NCBI GenBank assembly: GCA_012521335.1 | Contig: JAAYMM010000017.1 | Location: 1 to 60,862, forward strand | DNA length: 60,862 nt | Source: Bacillota bacterium | GTDB lineage: Bacteria > Bacillota > Limnochordia > Darwinibacteriales > Darwinibacteriaceae | Reading direction: 5' to 3' | In this document: one piece after another, positions 17,694-31,831 of the stretch | Layout: every line of letters starts with the position of its first letter | Position numbering within the stretch: the stretch's first letter is position 1 | Made by a program: the position numbers and the translations under genes | The notes under the pieces: generated by a model | Told to the model about the DNA's origin: nothing | Seen by the model: the letters and a program-made list of their open reading frames with translations, nothing else | The model's database searches: none

Positions 17694-18560
17694 CTACTCC
17701 CCGGCGATGCCGGATGTGCCCATGGTCTGGACAATCCTGGATTGGTTGATCACGAAGACCGTGATGGGCACGGTCATGAGCAGCACGGACACCGCGGCGG
17801 CGACCCCGGCGCGGCCGACGCCTCCGCCGATAATCTGCCCCAGCGCATAGGGCAAGGGCTTCAACTCTTCAGAGTAGATGAACAGCGCGCCTTGATCTCC
17901 CCAGAGCTGCTGAAAGTTTAGGATGATCAGGGTGAGCCAGGCGGGTTTCACGATGGGCATCACAATCTTCCAGTGGATGTACCATTCCGAAGCTCCATCA
18001 ATGCGCGCTGCTTCCAGCAGAGAATCATGCACCATATGGGTGATAAAATTGCGCATGAGGAACACTCCCAGGGTAGTCCCCCAAGCAGGGATAACCAAGG
18101 CCGCGTAGGTGTTGATCCAGCCTAGGTAGGAGATGATCAGATAGCGGGGGATGACCAGCACCGAGCCGGCAAACATGAGCGAGAACAGAATCAGGTTGTT
18201 GATCAGCTGCCTGCCCCTGAAGTCGTGTTTGGCGAGAGCATAGGCGCAGAGTGAACCCAGGATCACGTTGCCCGCGCTGCCCGCACCCACGATAAACAGG
18301 GAGTTAAACAGGTAGCGCGACACGGGAACCCAGGATTGCGCCATGAGCAGGAACAGATCGCTGAAGTTGCTCAGCGTAGGATGGCGCGGCAGGAACTGCG
18401 GCGGAAAGATGAACAGCTCGTTCAAGGGCTTAAATGCCTGGCAGATGGCATAGAACATGGGCAGCGCCATGTAAATGGCACCAAGGGCCAGCAGTGTTAA
18501 GATGGCCGCATCCCCTGCGGTGGAACGGGCTAGACGGCGGTTGCTGATTCGCAGACGCAT
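17694..18560 (-). CDS. Carbohydrate ABC permease (MalG-like)
   Basis: EAA motif LLEAARIDGAS, about 6 TM. Confidence 0.92.
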   Translation of the reverse strand: MRLRISNRRLARSTAGDAAILTLLALGAIYMALPMFYAICQAFKPLNELFIFPPQFLPRHPTLSNFSDLFLLMAQSWVPVSRYLFNSLFIVGAGSAGNVILGSLCAYALAKHDFRGRQLINNLILFSLMFAGSVLVIPRYLIISYLGWINTYAALVIPAWGTTLGVFLMRNFITHMVHDSLLEAARIDGASEWYIHWKIVMPIVKPAWLTLIILNFQQLWGDQGALFIYSEELKPLPYALGQIIGGGVGRAGVAAAVSVLLMTVPITVFVINQSRIVQTMGTSGIAGE

Positions 18561-18577
18561 TGCGTTTCCCTCCCCTG

Positions 18578-19468
18578 CTAAGCTATGCGGCGCAGAAGCC
18601 TCTGCACCAGGCGCTGCACCAACACCATGGTGATAAACAGGAGTACGGCCATGGCAGAGGCATAACCCATCTCATAGCGCACATAACCGTAATCGTTGAT
18701 GTGCTGCACGATAGTCCAAGTGGCCCAGTCCGTGGGGGCAGTGCCCGTGAGGGCCTGGATCTGGTCGGCAGCTGCGAAAGAGTTGGTAATACTGATAATG
18801 GCCCCGAACATCAAGTGGTGCTTCATCATGGGCAGGGTTATGTACCACAACTCCTGCCAGCGGTTGCGAATGCCGTCGATGGCTCCCGCTTCATAGTAGA
18901 TGGGGTCGATGCCCTGCAGGCCCGCGATAAAGGTTAAAAAGCTCACGCCCAGACTCATCCACAGGATCACCACGATCACAATGGGCATCATCCATCTAGG
19001 ATCGACGAGCCATTGGATGGGCTTGTCAATGATGCCCCAGTACAGCAGGATGCCGTTGATATACCCGTAGGCGTCGCCGCTGAACAGTACCGTCCAGATC
19101 ATGAAGGCATTGGCGGAAATGCTGGGCGCATAGAAGAGCAGCGTGAGTATGGCCCGAATCCTCGGTTTGAGCTCGTTGATCAGCCAGGCAAAGATGAAAC
19201 ACAGAGCATAGCTCAAGGGGCCCGTGATGGCTGCAAAGAGCAGGGTGTTCTTCACCGCGATGAGGAACACATCGTCTTCCAAGAACAGGGCCAGGTAGTT
19301 AGACCAACCCACCCAGCGGGGAGGCTCCACCATGTTGAAGTAGGTAAAGCTGAGCCCCATGGCAATAAGGATGGGCGCCAGCACGAAAACGGTGAACACC
19401 AGCAGGAACGGCGCCACAAACAGATATGAAACCCGCTTTTCCCTCAGTTCCAGCCAGAATGCCTTCAC
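18578..19468 (-). CDS. Carbohydrate ABC permease (MalF-like)
   Basis: YYEAGAIDGI motif; GTG 19468 overlaps the upstream TGA (GTGA). Confidence 0.92.
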   Translation of the reverse strand: MKAFWLELREKRVSYLFVAPFLLVFTVFVLAPILIAMGLSFTYFNMVEPPRWVGWSNYLALFLEDDVFLIAVKNTLLFAAITGPLSYALCFIFAWLINELKPRIRAILTLLFYAPSISANAFMIWTVLFSGDAYGYINGILLYWGIIDKPIQWLVDPRWMMPIVIVVILWMSLGVSFLTFIAGLQGIDPIYYEAGAIDGIRNRWQELWYITLPMMKHHLMFGAIISITNSFAAADQIQALTGTAPTDWATWTIVQHINDYGYVRYEMGYASAMAVLLFITMVLVQRLVQRLLRRIA

Positions 19469-22400
19469 GGCCCCTCTCCCCCTTCCACAAGCCCGTAACG
19501 CTCCAGGATGCCCCGATACTCTTCCCCCAGTTCCGGTGGATCCCAATCCAAGCGCCAGACATGGGTGTAGTGATCCCAAAACAGCTCCTTCCAGCGCTCA
19601 TCCAGCTCTTCCAGTTCAGTCTCGTAGCCAAACTCCGAGCGCTTACGGGCGATCTCTTTGTCGATCTCCCGGGCATAGTCCAGGACTGATTCCCGCACGG
19701 GAGCATTGTGCAGCACTACGGCCCTGAACAGCCAGTCAAACTGCCTGGTTACGTAGTACCCGCCCAGAACAGGCGGCACTCCTTCCACCCAATCCCACTG
19801 AGTGTTGAGCTGTTCCCGCTCCTCTACCCTCCAGGGCAGCTCCTGCATAGCCTCCACATTAGCTGTGGCATAACGGGCACTGGCGCCAATCAAGGCTTCC
19901 AGTTCCCGGCCGAAGCGGACCTGGGTCTCTTTGCTGGTCCACCACTTGAGGAACTCCCAAGCTTCCTGTTTGCGCTCGGATTTTTCCAAGATGATGGAAC
20001 CCGTTGTTCCGCTGGGCATGATCACCGCCCCCAGCTGATCGGTGCGGATCTGCAGGGCGTCCTGGGCCACGGGCACAGCCCGGTTAATGGTGCCATCAGG
20101 CTGCAGCGTCCCAGGGATGGGAGCCATACCCCACTGCCCCCTGAGTTCGGTGGCAAAAACCGAGAGGGTGTTGAACTCGGCGTAGTTGGCGATGGCCAGC
20201 GGCATCTCGCCCATGCGGAAACGGTTGATGAAGTTGTACTGCAGGGGCAGGCCCGATTGGGTAAAGAGATTGGTCATTTGGGCAAAAATGTCGATGGCGG
20301 CATGGGCTGTGAGGTTGGTTTGAATCACATCCTCTTTGTAGAGGCTGATCCCATTCTGGTACAGAAACTGCACAAAAGTGTACATACTTGGCCAGATGCC
20401 GAACTCCAGGTGATGATTCTGCAGCTCGGGCAGAATGCGCAGAACATCATCCCAGGTCTGGGGAATCTCCAGACCCAGTTCGTCAAGAATATCCTTGCGG
20501 TAGAACAGAATGGGGAAGCTCTGCACTTCCGGCAGGGCGAACACCTTGTCCCGGAAGCGGAACGCCAGCAGGGCCGATTTCTTAAAGCGTTGAGCCACTT
20601 CGGGGAAGTCGGGAAACTGGGTCAGATCAGCCACAGCGCCGCGGAAAGCCAGGTCCATATTGGCCGCCCCGATGGCCACATCAGGCTGGTTGCCGGCAAT
20701 GGTAGCCGGGACCAGCAGTTGATCCATATACGTAATCAGCTCCAGATCAACGTGGATGCCTGTCGCGGGCGTGAAGCTGTCCTCGATCATCTGCTTGAGG
20801 ATCTGGGCCTGGTCCCGGCCGAGCCCGATCCACACCTTAATCCGCTTGGCGGGTTCTGCGCTCGCCGCGTCCCCGCTGATATCATGGATGGTGGTGTAAT
20901 CGCGGACAAAGGAAGATAGAAAAGAGCGGACTTCGTGCACCACCACTTCCCAGAAGGTTGGTTGGGCCCTGGGCATCTCCTGCTCGGGAGAAGCCACCAC
21001 CAAAAAGTCGATCTGCAGGGGCTGGCGCCGGGAGGTCATGATCCAGGTGCCCAGCTGTCCGATGGCATCACGGTATTCCTGGAGCAGATTGGGGATGGCA
21101 TCAGGCTTCTCATACATGCGCTCCAGCATGCGGGCAAAGTCCAGCAGAGCCGCGGAGTGGCCCAGATGCTGAGTGATCCGCTGGACTTCCCCAGCTAGCA
21201 AACGCAGATCATCGGCCCCCGCCTTGATCCGCTCCAAGAGCTGCGGCACGCGCTGTTCCAGCTGGTAGCTGCGCATGGGGTCTGGTGTGGGCGAGGTGAT
21301 CATGATTATGCTGCGGTAGATACCGTTGAGCCCATAGAGCAGCTCTTCGGCAAACTCAATCAGGGGGCCCAGCTCACCCAGGACCGCTTCGAGGCGGATT
21401 TCGTGCCGCCCTTTGGTGAGGTAAAACAGGTAGGGCTCGCCCTGCTCCTCTTCTCCCAGCTGCTTCATCTCATAGCGCGAGGAAAAGCGGAAGGGGATCG
21501 CGGCCACCTCGGCAAAGGGCACTTCTCCATCGATAAGCAGCCTGCGGTGGCTCACATCACCCCTGTTGATGTTCTGCTTGGCCTTAATGGCGATCTTGTA
21601 GTAGCCGTCCTGGGGAATATCCACCTGCCAGGCGATCCAGTCGCCCACCTCCGTCCAGCGGTGGCCGCCTATGGAATTGAGCCTCGTTTCTGCGTGGTGA
21701 TAGGGCACTACGGTGGGATCTCCTGGATCGGCCACGGCAAACAAGGAGGGGCTGGAGCGGTAGCTGGACGCTTCCCCTTCGATCTGCAGGAAAATGCCCC
21801 GTACGTCCGCAGCCTCGGGCTGCTGAACCCGCACCTGGGCGTAGGGCTGAGGAACCGGCGCCTGACACAGCCGTAGGTGCCCAATAATCATGGGCTCCGC
21901 TCGGGAATGGAGGCGGATGGTGTTCCAACCCCGCTGGAAGTAAAAGAAGAAGGGATTCTGCTCATAGCCCTCGGCATCGCTGAGAAAAACCGTCTGCCAC
22001 ATGGGCTGTTCTACCTGGCGCGGCCGAATCTCATTGCCCGCGGCGTCAAAGCGGGAGGGGCCTGCATCGCCGAACACCCGCCGAAAAACTAGGTACTCCG
22101 CGCTGGCGAAGGGCAGCTGCCCGTTCACTTCTATGCTGCGTTCAATGGCCGTGCTGCGCCCGGGAGCGGGATAATAGCAGAGTTCAATATTGTACAACCC
22201 TGCTTCCTCCACCCAGACGTTCCATTCGATCATGCCCTGTTCATCGACCCAAACGGCCAGCCCGGGATAGCCCTCATACTGCGGCAGCACTTCCGTGCGG
22301 GCGGTGGCCCGGCGAAAGGAAACTGCCGAGATGGGCACGGCGTGTTCAGGGAAAACCGGCTCAGGGACAGCGGCCAGATACTCACGATAGGTGGGCGCTG

Positions 22401-22503
22401 TCTGGGCAGCTCTAGCTTGCTCCCCACAGCCTACCAGGGCAGCTAGGAACAGCAGGCCGCCGAGGATGAGAATGAACTCTGGTCGCAGGCGCCTGGCGAG
22501 CAT
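19465..22503 (-). CDS. Giant (1012 aa) extracellular solute-binding protein with N-terminal CBM-like beta-sandwich domains
   Basis: Lipobox-like LVGC; beta-rich repeats (WNVWVEEAGLYNIELCY, IAWQVDIPQDGYYKIAIK); C-terminal sugar SBP (WIGLGRDQAQIL, LFYRKDILDELG, AWEFLKWWTS). Confidence 0.85.
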   Translation of the reverse strand: MLARRLRPEFILILGGLLFLAALVGCGEQARAAQTAPTYREYLAAVPEPVFPEHAVPISAVSFRRATARTEVLPQYEGYPGLAVWVDEQGMIEWNVWVEEAGLYNIELCYYPAPGRSTAIERSIEVNGQLPFASAEYLVFRRVFGDAGPSRFDAAGNEIRPRQVEQPMWQTVFLSDAEGYEQNPFFFYFQRGWNTIRLHSRAEPMIIGHLRLCQAPVPQPYAQVRVQQPEAADVRGIFLQIEGEASSYRSSPSLFAVADPGDPTVVPYHHAETRLNSIGGHRWTEVGDWIAWQVDIPQDGYYKIAIKAKQNINRGDVSHRRLLIDGEVPFAEVAAIPFRFSSRYEMKQLGEEEQGEPYLFYLTKGRHEIRLEAVLGELGPLIEFAEELLYGLNGIYRSIIMITSPTPDPMRSYQLEQRVPQLLERIKAGADDLRLLAGEVQRITQHLGHSAALLDFARMLERMYEKPDAIPNLLQEYRDAIGQLGTWIMTSRRQPLQIDFLVVASPEQEMPRAQPTFWEVVVHEVRSFLSSFVRDYTTIHDISGDAASAEPAKRIKVWIGLGRDQAQILKQMIEDSFTPATGIHVDLELITYMDQLLVPATIAGNQPDVAIGAANMDLAFRGAVADLTQFPDFPEVAQRFKKSALLAFRFRDKVFALPEVQSFPILFYRKDILDELGLEIPQTWDDVLRILPELQNHHLEFGIWPSMYTFVQFLYQNGISLYKEDVIQTNLTAHAAIDIFAQMTNLFTQSGLPLQYNFINRFRMGEMPLAIANYAEFNTLSVFATELRGQWGMAPIPGTLQPDGTINRAVPVAQDALQIRTDQLGAVIMPSGTTGSIILEKSERKQEAWEFLKWWTSKETQVRFGRELEALIGASARYATANVEAMQELPWRVEEREQLNTQWDWVEGVPPVLGGYYVTRQFDWLFRAVVLHNAPVRESVLDYAREIDKEIARKRSEFGYETELEELDERWKELFWDHYTHVWRLDWDPPELGEEYRGILERYGLVEGGEGP

Positions 22504-22516
22504 GTTGCTTTCCCCC

Positions 22517-23644
22517 TTAGTCTTCCTGTGCAGTGCTGTACTGCCCTTGGTTCTCCTTCCAAGGTGTGGACGGATCCACTATGGCCCAGAAACTGGGCTT
22601 AGGATTGCCCTGCCGGTCAAAAAGCAGCGGATAATCAGGGCGGTTGGGGACCGGGAAGTGGTTCTTCCAGCTGTGGTTGTCCTTCACACCCCAGAAAGTC
22701 ACCCGTTCGATCACGTGAGAATAGTCCTTAAACAGCCTGAAGAGAGCGGCATAGCGGTTGGCCTGCTGCTCCTGCACAGCCTCTGGCAGACCGTTGGGAT
22801 AGCGGTTGCTGCGATCATTCCAAGTGTAGACGCTCACGTCCAGCTCGGTGATGTGCACCTTTACTCCCAGGGAGGAGTAAAGCTCAATGGCTTCACGGAT
22901 AGCCTCAATGCTGGGATGCTGGAGATCCCAGTGCCCCTGCATGCCGATGCCATCAACACGAATTCCCTTGTCCAAAAGCCCCTTGACCAAGGCGTAGATG
23001 GCATCCCGTTTGGGAGCGTCTGCAGCGTTATAATCGTTGTAATAGAGCTCCGCATCGGGATCCGCTTCCTGAGCAAACCGGAAGGCGTGTTCAATATAGT
23101 CATCGCCGATAATCCGCCGCCAGGGCGTATCCCGCAGCTCCCACTTCCCTGTGGCCGCATTGTATTCGATAGCCTCGTTAACCACATCCCAGCCCTTGAC
23201 CCTGCCTTTGAAGCGGCCCATTACGGTCTTGATGTGCTCCTCCATCCGGGCCAGCAGGGCCTCACGGCTCACTTCCCTGCCGTTCTCATCTTTGAACACC
23301 CAGTCTGGAGTCTGGTTGTGCCAGATCAGGGTATGCCCGATCACCTGCATGCCGTGTTCTTCAGCGTAGCGGATGAGGTTCTCGGCTTGGACAAAGCGGA
23401 ACTCGCCCGGCCTGGGCTGCAGCGCCTCCCACTTCATCATGTTCTCCGCTGTGACGGCATTGAAATGGTCCAGCAGCGGTTCGTCCAGCCAGTAGTCGGA
23501 CCGGGCCGCAAAACCGATCAGGAAATCATTGGCGTAAATCTCTTTCAGCATAGGTATCCCTCCAACTTCTGCCCTTGCCGGGCTGTAGAATGCACAAAGC
23601 ATCAGCAGCAGCAGCAAACTCCACACAGAAAACCTGGCCTTCAT
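22517..23644 (-). CDS. GH10 endo-1,4-beta-xylanase with Sec signal peptide
   Basis: TAENMMKW, GHTLIWH, acid/base WDVVNEA, nucleophile ITELDV, PLLFD. Confidence 0.96.
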   Translation of the reverse strand: MKARFSVWSLLLLLMLCAFYSPARAEVGGIPMLKEIYANDFLIGFAARSDYWLDEPLLDHFNAVTAENMMKWEALQPRPGEFRFVQAENLIRYAEEHGMQVIGHTLIWHNQTPDWVFKDENGREVSREALLARMEEHIKTVMGRFKGRVKGWDVVNEAIEYNAATGKWELRDTPWRRIIGDDYIEHAFRFAQEADPDAELYYNDYNAADAPKRDAIYALVKGLLDKGIRVDGIGMQGHWDLQHPSIEAIREAIELYSSLGVKVHITELDVSVYTWNDRSNRYPNGLPEAVQEQQANRYAALFRLFKDYSHVIERVTFWGVKDNHSWKNHFPVPNRPDYPLLFDRQGNPKPSFWAIVDPSTPWKENQGQYSTAQED

Positions 23645-23661
23645 CACACACCTCCCGTGTA

Positions 23662-24606
23662 TTACCCCACAATTCCCGTACGCTCCACGCTCTCCACGAA
23701 GTAGCGCTGCAGGAAGACGTAGAGGATCAAAAGGGGCAGGATCACCAAAAGCATTCCGGCATTGTTGATCAGAGAATAGAAGTGATCGTCGAGGAAACCG
23801 CTGGTTGACGCCAGCGCATCGGCCTCGTCGATGGCTTTGGCCACGCGCGAGGCCGCGCCTTCCAGGGCTTGGGGCAGGAAATTGCGCCCGGCCATAAAGG
23901 TGGTTACATACAGGTAGTCATTCCACTGCCAGACAAAGGAGAAGAGAAATGTGGTGATCAAGCCCGGGACAGCACCGGGAATCATCACCCTCCAAAAAGC
24001 GGCGAAGGGGCCCGCCCCATCGATGTAAGCCGCTTCTTCCAGCTCTTTGGGCATGCCACGGAAGAACTGGCGCATGATGAAGATGTACAAACCGCAGCGG
24101 AAACCCGTACCGGTTAAGCTCATGAGGATGAAAGGCCAGTAGGTGCCGATCAGGTTGAGCGAGCGGCCCTTGAGCAGACCCAAAAAGTCAAAGAAGCGGA
24201 AACTGAGATAGGTTGGGGTCATGATCAGCTGAGGCGGGATGATCAAGGTAAAGATGGCCAGGCCAAAGATGAGTTTGCTTCCGGGAAACCGAAAACGGGC
24301 CAGGCCGTAGCCCACCATGGAACAGGTAATCAGCTGCAGAGCGCTGGTTAAGGCCGTCAAAAACAGCGACCTCATGAAAGCACGGGGGTATTCCATATGC
24401 TCCCACACCAGCCTGAAGTTGCGCAGAGTTGGATTCCTGGGTATCCAGCGCACGGACTGATCATACAAGTCTTCGATGCTCATGAGCGCCGTGGACAGCC
24501 GATAGATCAGGGGCAGCAGGATCACGTAAGCGATGCCGATCAACAACACCGTGCGCAGCAGGGCCACCACGCGTTTTCTCCACTTTTCCTTGGCTGCTAG
24601 GCTCAT
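23662..24606 (-). CDS. Carbohydrate ABC permease (MalG-like)
   Basis: ELEEAAYIDGAG motif; ATG 24606 has the best SD spacing. Confidence 0.92.
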   Translation of the reverse strand: MSLAAKEKWRKRVVALLRTVLLIGIAYVILLPLIYRLSTALMSIEDLYDQSVRWIPRNPTLRNFRLVWEHMEYPRAFMRSLFLTALTSALQLITCSMVGYGLARFRFPGSKLIFGLAIFTLIIPPQLIMTPTYLSFRFFDFLGLLKGRSLNLIGTYWPFILMSLTGTGFRCGLYIFIMRQFFRGMPKELEEAAYIDGAGPFAAFWRVMIPGAVPGLITTFLFSFVWQWNDYLYVTTFMAGRNFLPQALEGAASRVAKAIDEADALASTSGFLDDHFYSLINNAGMLLVILPLLILYVFLQRYFVESVERTGIVG

Positions 24607-24621
24607 ACTCATACCTCCCTG

Positions 24622-25521
24622 CTAGACGTGATAAAACCCCCGGCGCGAGAGCAGGCCAAACACCGCGAGCAGCACCAGGCCGATGGCGGCAAAATAGATC
24701 ATGGCCATGGCCATGCTGACCCCGTAACCGGCACCGCGCAGCATGGTCTCCCGGATGAGATCCACCAACTTGTTGTTCATGGCTGTGAAAGAGTCGATGA
24801 TCGTGTAGATGATGTTCACTAGAATCAAGGGGCCCATCATGGGGAAGGTGATCAGCCAGAAACGCTCCCAGCCCGTGGCCCCCTCCACGCTGGCTGCTTC
24901 GTACACTTCCCTGGGGATGGACTGCAGCCCCGCGAGGAAGATCAAAATCTGCACGCCGGACGCCCGGATCACTGTGGGCAGGGCTTGGATGGCATCGGCG
25001 ACGTAATCCACCATGCCCGCGGGAAAGCGCGCCGCATCGAAAAAGCTCTGCACGGCAGCCCCGCCGAAAAAGGGAGCACTCTGCTGCAGATGGGTAACCA
25101 TGATCTGGGCGTAGTCTTTCATCTCCATCTTCAGCACCACACCGGCGCTGAGGATGACCGGCAGGAAAAACAGGGTCCTGACGAAAGTGCGCCCCCTAAA
25201 GTCGCTGTTGAGGATGGTAGCGGCAAAGAAGCTGAAACCGATGATCATGGGCAGCTCCGTTGCCAGTTTCACCAGCACTTCAGTGAACGTCTTGGAAAAC
25301 TCCGGATGCACCTGCAGGGCATAGCCATAATTTGCCCACCCTTTCCACTGGAGCTCAAAGGTTTCTGGTGTGAGCACTAGGTCGCTGAAGCTGATCACCA
25401 CTGCTTGATAGAAGGGGACGGCAAACAGGAAGATAAAGCCCACCAGGAAGGGGACGGTAAACAGAAACCCAACCAGCTTCTGCCGGTGCGCGAAGGCCAT
25501 GGGCCGTCTTTTCCTCTTCAT
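24622..25521 (-). CDS. Carbohydrate ABC permease (MalF-like)
   Basis: VYEAASVEGATGW motif. Confidence 0.92.
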   Translation of the reverse strand: MKRKRRPMAFAHRQKLVGFLFTVPFLVGFIFLFAVPFYQAVVISFSDLVLTPETFELQWKGWANYGYALQVHPEFSKTFTEVLVKLATELPMIIGFSFFAATILNSDFRGRTFVRTLFFLPVILSAGVVLKMEMKDYAQIMVTHLQQSAPFFGGAAVQSFFDAARFPAGMVDYVADAIQALPTVIRASGVQILIFLAGLQSIPREVYEAASVEGATGWERFWLITFPMMGPLILVNIIYTIIDSFTAMNNKLVDLIRETMLRGAGYGVSMAMAMIYFAAIGLVLLAVFGLLSRRGFYHV

Positions 25522-25522
25522 C

Positions 25523-28264
25523 TTACTTCCCCCCTTGCACAACCACGAAGCCCACTCCCGGAACCGCAACGTCCGCAGAGAGCTGATAGGGCTGCGCGGT
25601 GTAGTTCACCACTAGCTGAAGGCCGTTGTGGTAAGTCGTAGCACACACATTGGGGGCCAGCACCTGGTGATCGGTGATCACCAGGGGCCATTGGCTGCCC
25701 AAGACATCCCGCACCTGGTTGTAGACGGCGAGCAGTTCCCCCTTGATCTCCCGGAACTGCGTGGAGAGGAGGTAGTCGAAATCTGTGTTTTTGGTGGCAG
25801 ATGACGGTTCCCAGGAAAGGGCGAAATAAGGAATGGCTCCCGTCTCCAGCAGCTTGAGCAGGTAGAAAGCTCCCCTGTGGTCAGATAGGTTGAAAGGTTC
25901 TCCCGCATACTCCACCAACCCGCTCACCACGAGGGCATAGAACGGTACAGTCTGATGGAGAATGGCCTCGCCGCGGGCAAACAGGGGCGCTTCCACCAAC
26001 ACCTCGGCGTAGGGCAGCAGATAGGCGTTGCTGCCTGCGATCATGAGCCCTCTGTCCGCGGACAGCCTGCTCACTTCCTGAGCAATGATTTCTGCGGCCA
26101 TCACCCGGTCTACCAAGGTGGCGGGGTTAAGGCGGTAGTCGCCGTAGAGCAGCAGCCCCAAATCGCCCAGGGCCAGCCTGGAAAGGCCGTAGGAGTTGTA
26201 CTCCTTGAGGAACGCGTCGATCACCCCGGATAGCCGGGCCGGAGATAACAAGGGTATCTGCCGCTGGTCAATGGGCTGGTAGGTGGCAATGTGGAATGTG
26301 TTGAGCACAGCGGCACTGCGATCCAAGCCCCTGGGAGCATGGATAAATTGAACATAAAGGTCCAAAAGGTTGTTGCGGTGCACGCGCAGGAAGTCTACGC
26401 TGGGGTATAAGGCTACACCAAGCTCCTCCAGGGACCTGCTCAATTGCTGCCAGGTGCGCTGAGTGCCGGCGGCCTTCTCCAGAAGCGCTCCCCGGGGGTA
26501 AACATGGCGGATGCCGCCGCGCAGCCAACCCAGGTAGCGCACTTTGAGCTCGTCGACTCCCGCAGCCAGCAGATCATCCACGATCAGCCGCACCTGTTCG
26601 TGAGTGGTGAGCGGCTCCACCACGTTGGTGGGTATGCCCAATACGGGCTTGATCTGGTCAAACGATCCCAAAACATCCACCAGCAGAGGCAGCCCAGATC
26701 TGGATGGCAGCAGCGTTAAGCCGTGCTTCTCCATGAGATAATGCCGATAGGCTCTGGCCATGCCTGCATAACTGGTGTCTTCTTCTGGGAGGAACACGTA
26801 ACGCAGGACAATATCATTCTTGTTCAGACGGGCCTGGTACATCAGGATGGACAGCCGCCTCAGGTGGATGAGCTCACCCTCGGCCTCCATGTTCACCCGG
26901 GCTGAAGAACGGACCTCAAAGGATGCCCAGACTCTGTTGTAGGAATCGCGCATGCCGGGCAGCATGGCTTCAATCCGGGCCGAGGCATCACCCTCTTCAA
27001 TGATGGCCAGAAAGGCCTGTCCGTTGTTCACCATCCCGAAGACGGGAAGATAAATCTGCTCTTTGAGCATCGCGGAATATTCCCTCAGGGGCACAGCCGC
27101 GTAATCCTGACCGTACACCCTGCGGCTGTAAGGTTCCGCCAGCGGCGTGGGGCGGTTGAAGTAGATCAGTGCCCCCGAACCATCAGGGACAAACATGTAG
27201 CCTGCATCCTCTGCGCCGCCGGCGCCAAAATAGGGCAGCACACTGAGGGTGGTCAGGGGATAAGATACCTCCCGCTCATTCTTGGCATCCCACACCCGAT
27301 CAGGAAAAGTGATTTCCTCCGCAGGGATCCGCACAAGCAGGTCTCCTCCATCCAGGAGGTATTCCACCACAACTGTAAACTGGCGGAGATCGGGATAGGG
27401 CGGAGCGACATTGTAGTACTCATGATCGAAGGCCACGTCTTCCGGCGTGTAGCCAGCTGCCTTGACCAGTTGGATAGCATCCTCTATGTCCCACTGCATC
27501 ACATTCCATTTCAAAAGCAGGGTGGGAGTATTGCGCAGGGCCACGATCTCTTCCGGCTTTACATCCCCCAACGAAGCGTACTGCTTGTGATCCCTGATCA
27601 ACACCAGGTACTCTTGGAACAGACGCCTTTTGTCTGCGGTGCGGAACCGGGGCTCATCGACCTTGATGCCCCAACCGTCCAAAAGGCGGTCGAAGTCCAC
27701 GCCCATAATGCTCAAGTCTTCACCGCTGTCATAGCCCTCTTCTAAACTAAAGAGGCCGTACATGTCGCGCAGAAAGGCGCGATCCTTTTCCTTGGCGATG
27801 TTGGCCAGGATCAGCTCGTTGAACCGCTCTTCGGAAATGATGGTAGGCAGGTAATCCCGATCCTGCCAAGTCTTGCCGAACTTGTATTCTACCCGCAGCC
27901 CTTGCTCCAAGGGGATGATCGTGTACTGCCCGTGGGCCACGCTGTCGTTGAAGCTGTCCATCTGCTGCTGTTGGTTGGCCGCGTAGTAGGTAATCACCAG
28001 CTGCGAGCTCAACCGCGCCTTAGCGGCGCCCCTGGCCAGCGTCTCCTGCTGATCTCTCCCGGGAGGATTGGAGAACCAGAGCGCACCCGTCTCCTTGTGC
28101 AGCAGGGCGATCTCAGCGGTATCCGGCTTGAAGTACAGCTCCAGGAACTCGTTTTCTGCTCCCTTTTGGAAACCGGGAGGCAGATCGGCAGCGCCTGCTG
28201 TGGCTGTCCAGGCGGCCAGGGCCACCAGGAGCGCAGCCAACAGGACAAGCAGTCTCGCACGCAT
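25523..28264 (-). CDS. Large secreted uncharacterised protein, DUF5696-like (913 aa)
   Basis: Signal peptide; segments YMFVPDGSGALIYFN, VYGQD, LPVFG, RYLGWLRGG recalled as typical of proteins in this conserved ABC neighbourhood. Confidence 0.7.
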   Translation of the reverse strand: MRARLLVLLAALLVALAAWTATAGAADLPPGFQKGAENEFLELYFKPDTAEIALLHKETGALWFSNPPGRDQQETLARGAAKARLSSQLVITYYAANQQQQMDSFNDSVAHGQYTIIPLEQGLRVEYKFGKTWQDRDYLPTIISEERFNELILANIAKEKDRAFLRDMYGLFSLEEGYDSGEDLSIMGVDFDRLLDGWGIKVDEPRFRTADKRRLFQEYLVLIRDHKQYASLGDVKPEEIVALRNTPTLLLKWNVMQWDIEDAIQLVKAAGYTPEDVAFDHEYYNVAPPYPDLRQFTVVVEYLLDGGDLLVRIPAEEITFPDRVWDAKNEREVSYPLTTLSVLPYFGAGGAEDAGYMFVPDGSGALIYFNRPTPLAEPYSRRVYGQDYAAVPLREYSAMLKEQIYLPVFGMVNNGQAFLAIIEEGDASARIEAMLPGMRDSYNRVWASFEVRSSARVNMEAEGELIHLRRLSILMYQARLNKNDIVLRYVFLPEEDTSYAGMARAYRHYLMEKHGLTLLPSRSGLPLLVDVLGSFDQIKPVLGIPTNVVEPLTTHEQVRLIVDDLLAAGVDELKVRYLGWLRGGIRHVYPRGALLEKAAGTQRTWQQLSRSLEELGVALYPSVDFLRVHRNNLLDLYVQFIHAPRGLDRSAAVLNTFHIATYQPIDQRQIPLLSPARLSGVIDAFLKEYNSYGLSRLALGDLGLLLYGDYRLNPATLVDRVMAAEIIAQEVSRLSADRGLMIAGSNAYLLPYAEVLVEAPLFARGEAILHQTVPFYALVVSGLVEYAGEPFNLSDHRGAFYLLKLLETGAIPYFALSWEPSSATKNTDFDYLLSTQFREIKGELLAVYNQVRDVLGSQWPLVITDHQVLAPNVCATTYHNGLQLVVNYTAQPYQLSADVAVPGVGFVVVQGGK

Positions 28265-28295: not shown

Positions 28296-30455
28296 CTAAG
28301 TACGATGGATGGCCTCAGTGATCAACTGGCGGACGAACAGAACCACCTGTTCGGTCAGGGCGATAAACAACAACCCCAAAAAGAGGGCGAAGGCCATGCC
28401 CAACAGGGTAGAAATGCAGGTGAAGATGGTCTTGCTAAAGTCATACTCATGGGTGACCATGGTGGCGCCTACTACCAAAAGCACAACGGCCCAGCCCAAC
28501 CCCAAGGACATGAGCATGTAATAGAAAGCTCCTTCTTCGGCGATGAGGAAGTTGCTGATCATGGTCAAGGGCACAACGGTCAGGATGACAGGAATGAGGG
28601 CAAAGGCACTGGCGATGTAGACATCCCGCAGCGTTCCCTTGCCTTCCATCAAGGTGGTCAGAGCCCAGTTGACAAAGGTCCAGAGCAGGAAGGGCAGCAC
28701 AACACTGCCGATCTCCACCAAGAGATTGATCTTACTCAGATCTGCCCTGTTGAAGATGAAGCCCGTGTACTGGCGAGCAAAGACAAAGGTAAGCACAACC
28801 AGGGCTAAGATAATGGTGGCGGCCAAGGGTGTCCCCCTCTGTTCTTTCTTCAACCTTTCGAAACCGTCAAAGGGATGGAAGATGATGTATAACCCGAAGC
28901 GCAGGCTGTTTAGCGTCTTTCGGCCAAACCGGGCCCACTTCGCCTGGGCTGCGGCTGCCTCCTGCGCCGCGGGCAGGCTGGGCCTGCCAGGCCTGAACCT
29001 GCGGAAGAGGAAAAACGCGGCGAGCAAAACCGCGCCTGAGGCGAAGGCTTGGGGGAAGTGGGCATAGACCAGTTCTTTTCGATACAGCTCGAACGCCTCA
29101 GAATACTCAGCACGGTTGTTGCCCAGCCTGAAGTTTTCCATAGCCTGGGCGTATTCGCCCCTTCTAAGCAGCGCCCGGCCGATGCCAGTGTAGGCCACAT
29201 CGAAGTTGGAGTTGAGCACCAGAAGCTGGCCCCAGATTCTTTCAGCCAGGTGGTAGTCGCCCCGCTCGTAAGCATCCAGGGCAGCCCAGATGAGGAGCGC
29301 ATAGTCGGTGGGCTCGAAAACCACGATACCTCCACGCTGGGCATCCAGGACAAGCATCGTTTTGCCCAGATGGTCCAGGGCCACGGGACTGGCCACCTGG
29401 CCGTGCCCTGAACCCCAGTAGCCAAAATCGTAAAGAAGGTTGCCGTTGTTGTCGTAGGTGAATACCCGCCCCCGATTGCCGTCGAGCACGCTATACACTC
29501 CGTAGGGTTGTACCGTGATATCCACCAACATGGAGGATGTGCGCCGGGTGGCTGTGGACCAGCGGTCGGGGAACTCCACATCACCCATGGGATCGGCAAA
29601 GCCCAATCGCCTCAGCAAGTCTTGGCCCTTGGCGTTAATTTTACGGACCTTGATGGCGATTCCGCCTTGATCTTCTTCCTTATCCTCAGCATGGCTGGTG
29701 GCGTAGATGAAACCCTCCGAGTCCAAATCGAAGTTGGTATACTCTGTGGGCAGAAAAGCCCGGATCCTCTGGCGCTGTTCCTTGGTGGCGAAGCGGCTCC
29801 ACAGGTATTCGGCCAAACTGGGCGTAACGCGGGGCGCGCCCAAAAAGCCGCGAAACTGACCGTCGGCACTAAAGCTGATGAATCCTTCGTATAAGTCTTG
29901 GGCGATCACATAAATCCGGCCGTGCTGATCCACGCCCACCTTCAGGGGCCGGTAGTTGAAATTGGCGGGAAGGATCCCCTCAAACTGTGCCTGGGGAGCA
30001 GGCACGATCCGGTTGAGAGTCCCGTCTGGATTGAGGTGTACAATGCGGCCGTTGCCCGTATCGGCAACGTAAATGTGGCCCTCGGGAGTGACAAAAAGGC
30101 CCATGGGAGAGTTGAAGCTGTCGTCATCGCCAAAACTGGAGATCACGCGCACCAGCTGGAAACTGCCATCGGCCACAACCAGGCGGTTGTTGCCCGTATC
30201 GGCGATATAAATCTCGCCCTGCGCGCTGACAAACAGGTCATTCGGATTCTTCAGCGGCCCCACCTGCAGATCGTCCCCCAGGATGATCCGAGACGGGAGA
30301 TAGGCCTGGGGGCTGGGTACCGCCTTCTGCCAGAAATCATACAAATAGCTGGTGTATGGAACAGTGAAGTTGGTAATTGAGGTGCCTTGGGCGTAAGCAG
30401 AGCAGCAAGCCGCCAGCACGGCCACCAGCACTGCACACACCTTGCGCCACATCAT
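28296..30455 (-). CDS. NHL-repeat / TPR / Yip1-domain membrane protein (719 aa)
   Basis: Signal peptide, repeated YIADTGNNR / YVADTGNGR (NHL), TPR-like helix pair (AYTGIGRALLRRGEYAQAM), C-terminal multi-TM Yip1-like domain (HPFDGFERLK...). Confidence 0.8.
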   Translation of the reverse strand: MMWRKVCAVLVAVLAACCSAYAQGTSITNFTVPYTSYLYDFWQKAVPSPQAYLPSRIILGDDLQVGPLKNPNDLFVSAQGEIYIADTGNNRLVVADGSFQLVRVISSFGDDDSFNSPMGLFVTPEGHIYVADTGNGRIVHLNPDGTLNRIVPAPQAQFEGILPANFNYRPLKVGVDQHGRIYVIAQDLYEGFISFSADGQFRGFLGAPRVTPSLAEYLWSRFATKEQRQRIRAFLPTEYTNFDLDSEGFIYATSHAEDKEEDQGGIAIKVRKINAKGQDLLRRLGFADPMGDVEFPDRWSTATRRTSSMLVDITVQPYGVYSVLDGNRGRVFTYDNNGNLLYDFGYWGSGHGQVASPVALDHLGKTMLVLDAQRGGIVVFEPTDYALLIWAALDAYERGDYHLAERIWGQLLVLNSNFDVAYTGIGRALLRRGEYAQAMENFRLGNNRAEYSEAFELYRKELVYAHFPQAFASGAVLLAAFFLFRRFRPGRPSLPAAQEAAAAQAKWARFGRKTLNSLRFGLYIIFHPFDGFERLKKEQRGTPLAATIILALVVLTFVFARQYTGFIFNRADLSKINLLVEIGSVVLPFLLWTFVNWALTTLMEGKGTLRDVYIASAFALIPVILTVVPLTMISNFLIAEEGAFYYMLMSLGLGWAVVLLVVGATMVTHEYDFSKTIFTCISTLLGMAFALFLGLLFIALTEQVVLFVRQLITEAIHRT

Positions 30456-30523: not shown

Positions 30524-31831
30524 TTACTGCTTGAGGTACTCGTCGATCATGGCCTGGCCTTGCGGCTTGAACTCGTTGACGATGGTGGAAGCCACTCCGC
30601 CGCCCTTGATACCCTCGATCACGCCGCCATAGGGCGTCTGATTCTCGTACCAGGCACCAAGGAAGTTGTGGTAGTAGGCGGCGTCGCCGTTCACCTCGGC
30701 AAAGGCCCTCTGGAATACTTGATACGAGGTGCGGTCATAGGCACGATCGCGGATCATATCTTCCATGGCCTCGTAGTAGTCCTCCAGCGGGAAGAGGAAG
30801 TTGTCCAGAGCGATCAGGCCCAGGGGATAGGCGGCATTTCTGGGTATGAAGATGGCATCGGCCACCCCAGGTGCGAAGACATAGTCATCGACATCATCGC
30901 CCATGGGCAGGGGCAGGATTCCGTGCCTGAATTCGTACTAGCTGGGGTTAATCTGCCAGAACGGCATGATGCCGATGGCTGTGCGGCCGGTGATGAACTC
31001 CCTCATCTGCCAGTCACCGTAGGAAATGCCCAGCACGTTTTCCCACTCAGCCAGTTTGCGCAGGGCGTTGATGGCCTGAGGCTCATCCAATGCATAATAG
31101 ACTCTGCCGTCATCGCCCAGCCTGGTGATGGCGCCTCCGTTGCTGAAGATCATGAACATGGGATCGATGAAAGCGAGCGCCCACTGGTCCACAACCCCAT
31201 CACCATCTGTATCACGGGTGACCTGGCGGCCGATCTCCTCCACGATCTTCCAGTTCCATTCATTGTTCTCATAGAGTTCGTAAGGATCCGGCAGGCCTTC
31301 CCGCTCGAACAGGTCGAGATTGACCACAGCAAAAGGCGCATGGCCGAAGTCGTCGGGAACACCTACGGAGAAGTGGAAGACATGCCCGTCATAGGACAGG
31401 CGCTCATTCTTCTCGCGCGTAATTGGTGAGAGCTGTTCAAAGTACTCGGGAGGCAGAATCTCGTCCACTGGGTAGAACGCGCCGCGGGTAGCCAGGGTGA
31501 AGAAATCCCTGTGGGGCAGGCGCCAGATGTCATACTGCGAGTCGCCCGACAGATAGCGGTTGAGAGCCAGTTGTCCGACTTCATCCCAACCTGCCGTGAT
31601 CAGCTGGATGTCACCGATATTGAACAGCTTCTTAGCCTCTTCCAGCCGTCCCGCGCGTGCTCCGCCTTCGTAGAAAGCGGATAAGTTGTCGAAGTGTGCT
31701 ACATAGGTTACTGTTGCGCCTTGGAAGTCAATGGGTCCGAAGTCCATGCGGTCAGATTCATAAGCCAATACGACGGGCGATATTGCCGCTGCTACGAGCA
31801 GCACAGCAGTAAGCAATCCAATCTTTCTCAT
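30524..31831 (-). pseudogene. Sugar ABC solute-binding protein interrupted by one in-frame TAG (30938-30940)
   Basis: ORFs 30938..31831 and 30524..30904 share a frame: ...FWQINPS*YEFRHGILPLPMGDD...; joined length 435 codons; Sec signal peptide. Confidence 0.8.

Follow-up and report, generated by a model that had tools for sequence, protein, structure and literature searches.

DUF5696 of an ABC importer cassette has a GH129/GH101-type fold whose active site is rewired or lost

Introduction

Does a secreted protein that is shaped like a glycosidase, and encoded among the genes of sugar importers, cleave glycans or handle them in some other way? The question is raised by a gene of the DUF5696 family (Pfam PF18952) in a 60,862-nucleotide stretch of DNA, here called the window, from a Bacillota bacterium (GTDB lineage Limnochordia; Darwinibacteriales; Darwinibacteriaceae; contig JAAYMM010000017.1 of assembly GCA_012521335.1, positions 1 to 60,862). 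An initial annotation, made from the sequence alone, took the 913-amino-acid product for a secreted TIM-barrel protein resembling a glycoside hydrolase (GH) that acts on or binds xylan fragments, and proposed that it either founds a new CAZy family or is a catalytically dead binder.

Literature searches on DUF5696, on PF18952, and on the combination of Yip1, NHL, and ATP-binding cassette (ABC) components found no paper on the family or on its gene cassette, and the twin ABC sugar importer cassette in which the gene lies is widespread, apparently undescribed, and in the window linked to xylan. The hosts of DUF5696 are fiber-degrading bacteria of gut, soil, and digester, and several of their genomes carry three to four copies. 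Here, we report that DUF5696 has a GH129/GH101-type fold whose active site has been rewired or lost, and that it has been recruited into an ABC importer cassette. Our favored reading, to which we give a probability of about one-half, is that the window protein may be a periplasmic, noncanonical, and probably nonhydrolytic sugar-handling or docking subunit of a twin importer.

Results

The DUF5696 gene is well supported and carries an export signal

The gene is an ATG-started open reading frame of 913 codons plus stop at positions 25523..28264 of the minus strand. Pfam assigns it to PF18952 with an E value of 2.4e-166, residues 275-903 covering profile positions 2-609 of 612 at 555.3 bits against a cutoff of 25.6. 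A genome-wide search for the family recovered the same protein, one homology search scored 535 relatives, and a second returned 4569 cluster representatives at 50% identity (2603 with E <= 1e-30). The gene is real and well supported, far beyond chance. Its nearest named relatives, at ∼50% identity, come from Limnochordia metagenome-assembled genomes (MAGs), and NCBIfam holds no family that matches the protein. A second DUF5696 gene was found on another contig of the same genome (C70:2306-3082; E 1.2e-69), where the stretch ends inside an open frame.

In the N terminus, MRARLLVLLAALLVALAAWTATAGA followed by AD, a hydrophobic core of 15 residues lies between a charged n-region (MRAR) and an AxA site (AGA, followed by AD), and the three together make up a Sec-type signal peptide of 25 residues (28190..28264, minus strand; read from the sequence). 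The protein has no lipobox cysteine, LPXTG motif, sortase motif, or C-terminal hydrophobic segment or anchor. For the family, we examined 146 nonredundant representatives (alignment A3). An N-terminal hydrophobic segment is present in 140 of them, 16 of which have a lipobox, and a C-terminal anchor was seen in none (0/146). Open reading frame, Pfam match, and N terminus thus confirm the description of a secreted DUF5696-like protein that carries a signal peptide and lacks a C-terminal anchor.

The same genome encodes an Omp85/BamA homologue (C56:23492-24382; E 5.9e-55), while LpxC was not found in the genome search, which suggests a diderm envelope without classical lipopolysaccharide. Because BamA makes an outer membrane probable, the exported protein is most likely periplasmic.

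The predicted fold is closest to the GH129/GH101 lineage

We predicted the structure with AlphaFold, using a 67-sequence family alignment (A1) as input (pLDDT, 90.4; pTM, 0.85). In the model, a (beta/alpha)8 barrel lies between two beta-sandwiches, which is the three-domain fold of GH129. The secondary structure of the model is beta-rich in the N-terminal part and alternates between strand and helix in the C-terminal part, as had been anticipated. The N-terminal beta-sandwich (residues 30-132 and 293-497; 26774..28177, minus strand), as delimited by model secondary structure, is split by a variable helical insert (residues 133-292) and carries the motif GY-x-F-V-P360-D361-G-S-G364 together with the conserved residues D387 and E423. 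The barrel spans residues 526-860 (25685..26689, minus strand) according to model secondary structure, column statistics, and Foldseek, with modeled strands at 526-532, 572-578, 618-623, 696-699, 739-743, 755-757, ∼785, and 813-817. The C-terminal beta-sandwich, from the model and column statistics (residues 861-913; 25526..25684, minus strand), contains H866 (97% conserved), N887, and Y888. The aromatic motifs picked out in the initial annotation are all present, YLGWLRGG at residues 577-584, YPSVDF at 620-625, and YGDY at 707-710.

The best Foldseek match in the PDB was the GH129-like enzyme ZgGH129, also called DagB (5opq; E 7.8e-28; template modeling [TM] score on target, 0.66), followed by the GH129 enzyme NagBb (5wzn; E 2.6e-24; TM score on target, 0.71). 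GH101 structures matched with E values of about 1e-14 to 1e-12 and TM scores on target of 0.28-0.33, and GH31 and GH36 structures matched with E values of 1e-13 to 1e-12 and TM scores on target of about 0.4-0.5. The A1 family profile reached the two GH129 structures by sequence as well (5opq, E 1.3e-7; 5wzn, E 2.3e-5). A search of PDB chains with a single DUF5696 sequence gave no match, and the GH129 Pfam model PF11308 did not match the DUF5696 protein even at an E value of 10; precomputed PF18952 assignments cross-match many bona fide PF11308 (GH129) proteins. The guess of a GH-like TIM barrel, which had been put forward together with structure prediction and a Foldseek search as its check, was correct, since the Foldseek matches to GH129, GH101, GH31, and GH36 and the profile matches to 5opq and 5wzn both bear it out. 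Judged from the model, the nearest relatives of the DUF5696 fold are the GH129/GH101 lineage of alpha-glycosidases.

DagB, an alpha-1,3-(3,6-anhydro)-D-galactosidase of Zobellia galactanivorans (5opq and 8rzg-8rzk), is both the best structural and the best sequence-profile match. The stretches that align are the N terminus, a segment running from the last part of the N-domain to barrel strands 1 and 2 (with a shared H-x-Y-P), and the C-terminal sandwich. The GH101 endo-alpha-N-acetylgalactosaminidases (SpGH101 of Streptococcus pneumoniae, 5a55-5a59; EngBF of Bifidobacterium longum, 2zxq) have a related barrel with flanking sandwiches but are larger, multidomain surface enzymes (catalytic pair of SpGH101, D764/E796), and their similarity, compared by fold only, is much weaker. 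DUF5696 is a predicted relative of the same kind as Naumoff's GHL1-GHL15, hypothetical TIM-barrel families predicted in silico as relatives of the GH101, GH27, GH31, and GH36 superfamily, of which GHL1 became GH129 (PMC5765458). Unlike DUF5696, in which the canonical pair is missing (see below), the GHL families were put forward as enzymes.

The canonical catalytic pair of GH129 is not conserved in DUF5696

In NagBb, the alpha-N-acetylgalactosaminidase of Bifidobacterium bifidum, D435 is one of the two catalytic residues; in ZgGH129, mutation of any of D486 (the equivalent of NagBb D435), E517, E531, and D202 inactivates the enzyme (PMC5698469). Because single Firmicute PF11308 sequences could not be numbered against 5wzn, we used a GH129 profile (A2) of 36 sequences, expanded from three PF11308 genes fetched from genomes. 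When A2 was anchored to PDB numbering, NagBb D435 corresponded to D531 and NagBb E478, which we take to be the second catalytic residue (the acid/base), corresponded to E575, both of them invariant in A2. We then aligned A2 to DUF5696 profile to profile, using two DUF5696 alignments (probabilities, 62% and 72%; E values, 7e-5 and 3e-5).

Both profile alignments pair E575 with Ala743, D531 with Ala698 or a gap, and D533 with D701, and they also pair D541 with D709 and N578 with N746. The register is backed by local motifs (YDDY versus SDF/GDY, GGND versus GGNA, and P-Y-Y versus P-F-Y) and by the distance from the end of strand 4 to the end of strand 5, which is 43-44 residues in both NagBb and the model. 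Thus, where GH129 enzymes carry the acid/base glutamate after strand 5, the window protein has Ala743; at the nucleophile position after strand 4, these alignments of moderate probability place Ala698 or a gap, with the neighboring D701 being an aspartate here. In the N-domain, greedy hhalign was unreliable owing to an insertion in GH129, and D361, D387, E423, and ZgGH129 D202 were left unmapped.

Across the family, position 701 is Asp in 39% of the representatives and position 743 is Asp or Glu in 44%. Both features occur together in 28 representatives, where 27.6 would be expected by chance, so that they vary independently. A2 has eight invariant barrel carboxylates, and a single one of them (D541, at D709) is kept in DUF5696. 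From the mapping of Ala743 and the independent drift of positions 701 and 743, we therefore conclude that the canonical GH129 acid/base is, on the aligned sequences, absent from the window protein, and that the canonical catalytic pair does not appear to be a selected feature of the family. As between the two options originally offered, a new CAZy family and a dead binder, the latter is now the better supported, given the alanine at the acid/base position and the lack of conservation of the pair.

NagBb has the same three domains as DUF5696, yet the two share 13% identity, E478 of NagBb falls on Ala743, and its D435 has no aspartate counterpart in the alignments. DUF5696 furthermore has an extra helical insert of ∼160 residues in the N-domain. 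NagBb is a mucin glycosidase that stands alone; DUF5696 is always found inside an ABC importer cassette. DagB is periplasmic, as the window protein probably is, and has itself diverged from the catalytic pair of NagBb (PMC5698469). It is, however, a proven exo-glycosidase that needs D486, E517, E531, and D202, none of which was matched to a family-conserved DUF5696 carboxylate, and it sits in a carrageenan locus rather than in a twin importer cassette.

In the course of this comparison, we came across a widespread group of Firmicute PF11308 (GH129-family) lipoproteins of ∼770 residues (L005-L007; P0255-P0376), with members in Bacillus, Paenibacillus, Brevibacillus, Clostridioides, Listeria, and Enterococcus. 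The catalytic pair of NagBb is intact in them, and barrel strand 1 is followed by a large helical insertion. These proteins are so divergent that a single sequence misses 5wzn, and they appear to be uncharacterized.

An alternative set of polar residues is conserved

The initial annotation had also suggested examining the carboxylates of the cleft. The canonical pair is not conserved, but the carboxylates D361, D387, E423, D709, and E807 are. They belong to a set of polar residues that are 88 to 99% conserved, namely, D361, D387, and E423 (95% each), D709, R720, N746, N792, E807, K825, H866, and N887. E/D530, W580, H587, R645, and D770 are also strongly conserved. Conserved residues that follow barrel strands are W580, H587, R645, D709, R720, N746, D770 (His in the window protein), N792, and K825. 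In the model, most of the conserved barrel residues would sit just after strands 2 to 8, that is, on the face where the sites of TIM barrels lie.

These residues are an argument for an active glycosidase of a new CAZy family, which would use a different apparatus (D709 with D770/His770, or D361, D387, and E423) and trim a linkage before import. Polar residues after nearly every barrel strand and three N-domain carboxylates are conserved, and the nearest structural relatives are all true enzymes. The lineage also tolerates rewired sites, as ZgGH129 keeps only one of the two catalytic residues of NagBb and recruits an N-domain Asp (PMC5698469). In contrast, the positions of the canonical nucleophile and acid/base vary without regard to each other, and seven of the eight invariant PF11308 barrel carboxylates are not conserved. 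The best acid/base candidate, D770, is moreover replaced in the clade of the window protein, which has Ala743 and His770 (Asp in the family) in common with the three proteins most similar to it (>=64% identity). His770 is not a sequencing error, because it is fixed in this clade. Nor is it proof of inactivity, since histidine can act as the general acid in some glycosidases, as is known for GH117 (PMC11574756). We regard an active enzyme as a minority possibility to be taken seriously, and a further difficulty for it lies in the range of substrates to which the cassettes are linked.

DUF5696 is tied to an importer cassette and not to xylan

We surveyed the gene neighborhoods of 83 DUF5696 loci using the proteins of the window as probes, with counts given over the loci that have room to show a feature. 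The loci come from Paenibacillus, Cohnella, Lachnospiraceae, Oscillospiraceae, Mahella, Halanaerobiales, Limnochordia, and Treponema/Spirochaetaceae. In 76/76 loci, DUF5696 is preceded by an NHL gene, with Yip1 directly upstream in 75/76, and a permease pair follows directly downstream in all 72 loci (72/72; median gap, −4 nucleotides). A solute-binding protein (SBP) of ∼960-1030 residues is present in 55/83 loci, and the unit of this giant SBP and two permeases recurs in the same number of loci (55). The unit lies downstream of DUF5696 in the window, as it does in loci L002 and L015, and upstream in most. The window has the whole set: Yip1 upstream, coupled permeases downstream, and the giant SBP with a second permease pair.

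The enzymes that accompany the cassette are diverse. A census of 90 flanking genes found 115 Pfam families, including GH26, GH95, GH36, GH38, GH43, apiosidase-like proteins, LacI regulators, and small SBPs, and PL14, GH130, and GH36 contexts are also present beside DUF5696 cassettes. A xylan-specific signature among the GH10-linked cassettes was considered and rejected: the DUF5696 proteins from GH10-linked loci (L021, L024, and L085) are 33% identical to the window protein, those of unrelated cassettes are 36-45% identical, and the GH10-linked copies do not share A743 or H770. From the diverse flanking enzymes and the distant GH10-linked copies, we therefore conclude that DUF5696 goes with the cassette rather than with xylan.

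The proposal of a protein dedicated to xylan, whether a hydrolase or a binder of glucuronoxylan, arabinoxylan, or xylo-oligosaccharides, does not survive this comparison well. The locus itself speaks for it, with an exported GH10, a GH67, a GH3, and an acetylesterase-like SASA protein, and positions 700, 701, 743, 754, and 758, which are variable residues around the predicted pocket, could tune specificity from cassette to cassette. The family is nevertheless bound to the cassette rather than to a substrate, the GH10-linked copies are no closer than others, and the close structural relatives all cleave alpha-linkages (according to their PDB titles), whereas the xylan backbone is beta-linked. 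We consider xylan dedication very unlikely. The same breadth bears on the active glycosidase discussed above, as one conserved site is hard to square with cassettes of xylan, mannan, alpha-galactoside, fucoside, apioside, and alginate type.

The invariance of the gene order and the translational coupling to membrane subunits would also suit a structural or assembly part that binds no sugar, such as a scaffold, spacer, or chaperone for the permease pairs and the giant SBP, in which case the fold would be an evolutionary relic. The loss of the canonical pair is in keeping with such a part. Furthermore, conservation is densest not in the barrel but in N-domain segment 293-497, with 26 positions at >=90% (the helical insert has only 1), which fits a protein-protein interface. 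On the other hand, W580, H587, R645, D709, N746, N792, and K825 at the barrel mouth look like a ligand pocket rather than an interface, and a 913-residue, three-domain fold is costly for a spacer. On these grounds, a purely structural role seems improbable to us.

Complete cassettes, consisting of the giant SBP, two permeases, NHL, Yip1, DUF5696, and two further permeases, also occur in Treponema and Spirochaetaceae MAGs (L066, L075, and L076), which suggests that the cassette was horizontally transferred out of Bacillota into Spirochaetes. Two MAGs hold four paralogous cassettes each, AS02xzSISU_7 (L009, L012, L013, and L025) and AS08sgBPME_46 (L016, L017, L032, and L053), a situation that recalls the multiple polysaccharide utilization loci of single genomes.

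The operon in the window

The window operon runs on one strand and encodes, in order, a small SBP whose gene is broken by an amber codon, an NHL-TPR-Yip1 protein, DUF5696, two permeases, the exported GH10, a 1012-residue lipoprotein SBP, and two further permeases. Genes for cytoplasmic GH3 and GH67 adjoin it, and the acetylesterase-like SASA protein is encoded in the same locus.

The small SBP gene (435 codons; 30524..31831, minus strand) has an in-frame TAG at 30938-30940, codon 298 (...FWQINPS*YEFRHG...). Its 437-residue counterpart is uninterrupted in two other loci (L002 and L003), and the TAG could be a nonsense mutation, an error in the MAG consensus, or a site of read-through. The upstream partner of DUF5696 (719 residues; 28296..30455, minus strand) comprises a signal peptide, an NHL beta-propeller, a TPR-like region, and a Yip1 domain with five transmembrane segments (residues 540-693), as judged by Pfam matches to NHL and Yip1 and by a transmembrane scan. 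A 31-nucleotide spacer with a Shine-Dalgarno-like sequence separates its stop codon from the ATG of DUF5696.

On the other side, the first ABC permease pair (two BPD_transp_1 matches in Pfam; 23662..25521, minus strand, as set by the junction sequence) begins at an ATG at 25521, one base past the TAA stop of DUF5696. The mechanical open reading frame call for the first of these permeases is 24622-25569 (minus strand), which starts at a TTG at 25569 and overlaps DUF5696 by 47 nucleotides. The true start is likely the ATG at 25521, which in the sequence stands behind the Shine-Dalgarno-like run GGGGGAAG.

The exported GH10 xylanase (22517..23647, minus strand) matches Glyco_hydro_10 in Pfam with an E value of 5e-104 and has a signal peptide ending in ...SPARA before EV. 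It is followed by the giant lipoprotein SBP (1012 residues; 19465..22503, minus strand; Pfam SBP_bac_1 and SBP_bac_8), which has the lipobox LVGC, and then by the second ABC permease pair (17694..19579, minus strand; two BPD_transp_1 matches in Pfam). In the AlphaFold model of the giant SBP (pLDDT, 86.9), a helical bundle and two beta-sandwich domains accompany a MalE-like oligosaccharide-binding core. In Foldseek, the model matched oligosaccharide SBPs with TM scores on target of 0.7-0.8; in this search with the whole fold, the MalE-like core alone was matched, and no match was found for the two N-terminal beta-sandwich domains. Some homologues of ∼1525 residues (P0394-P0396) are fused to a GH10 catalytic domain and F5/8-type-C (CBM32-like) domains, and others carry CBM35. 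Given these GH10-SBP fusions, xylanase and binding protein can form a single polypeptide in related cassettes. The giant SBP is the cassette part most visibly tied to substrate capture, because of its MalE-like core, its extra domains, and its GH10 and CBM fusions.

The permease pairs of the BPD_transp_1 type and the MalE-like SBP core are those of CUT1-type ABC oligosaccharide importers (MalEFG-like). No ATPase gene is encoded in the window operon; many CUT1 systems share an ATPase. Unlike CUT1 systems, the operon has two permease pairs, an SBP of ∼1000 residues with extra domains, an NHL-TPR-Yip1 protein, and a GH129-shaped DUF5696 protein, and our literature search found none of these extra parts described for CUT1 systems.

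Discussion

We propose the following role for the DUF5696 protein. A Sec signal peptide would export it, and it most likely remains in the periplasm. It has the three-domain architecture of the GH129/GH101 alpha-glycosidases, with the acid/base of that lineage apparently lost here and the nucleophile apparently lost across the family. Because of these losses, a nonhydrolytic or noncanonical sugar-handling role seems the most likely one. The NHL-Yip1 protein may hold DUF5696 at the membrane, where oligosaccharides, in this locus from the coencoded exported GH10, would enter a conserved predicted pocket that the loop of the N-domain and the mouth of the barrel enclose. DUF5696 would then hand them to the binding proteins and permeases, and the cytoplasmic GH67 and GH3 would complete the breakdown. 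The results above establish the export signal, the fold, the place in the cassette, the missing canonical pair, and the alternative polar residues that are conserved; complex formation, sugar binding, and hand-over are the steps that we infer.

Several points weigh against this proposal. The residue mapping depends on profile alignments of moderate probability and not on model coordinates, and the window protein does have an aspartate, D701, near the nucleophile position. Polar conservation of 88 to 99% resembles that of a real active site, which makes a different catalytic apparatus conceivable. D709 and D770 are 61 residues apart, similar to the spacing between nucleophile and acid/base in GH31 and GH36, which makes them a candidate pair on spacing alone. 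Finally, sugar binding and contact with NHL-Yip1 or the permeases are predictions from sequence and model.

A wider picture can be drawn from the same cassette. DUF5696 and NHL-TPR-Yip1 might together make up a hitherto unrecognized extracytoplasmic module, which would link two ABC importers and the giant SBP in one multicomponent machine for glycan import. Such a machine would occur widely in Bacillota and would have passed to some Spirochaetes. It would be a Gram-positive-type functional counterpart of the SusCD system of Bacteroidota, and its substrate receiver or gate would be either a GH129-derived pseudoenzyme or an enzyme with a new catalytic apparatus. This picture is speculative and probably claims too much.

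For the DUF5696 family, so far a "domain of unknown function," the present results pose a testable choice between a new catalytic solution and a pseudoenzyme turned transporter subunit. In current annotation, the genes of the family are passed over as hypothetical or might be wrongly counted among the glycosidases. Either answer would alter the annotation of Gram-positive-type polysaccharide utilization loci, and either also bears on the route by which large oligosaccharides reach ABC importers.

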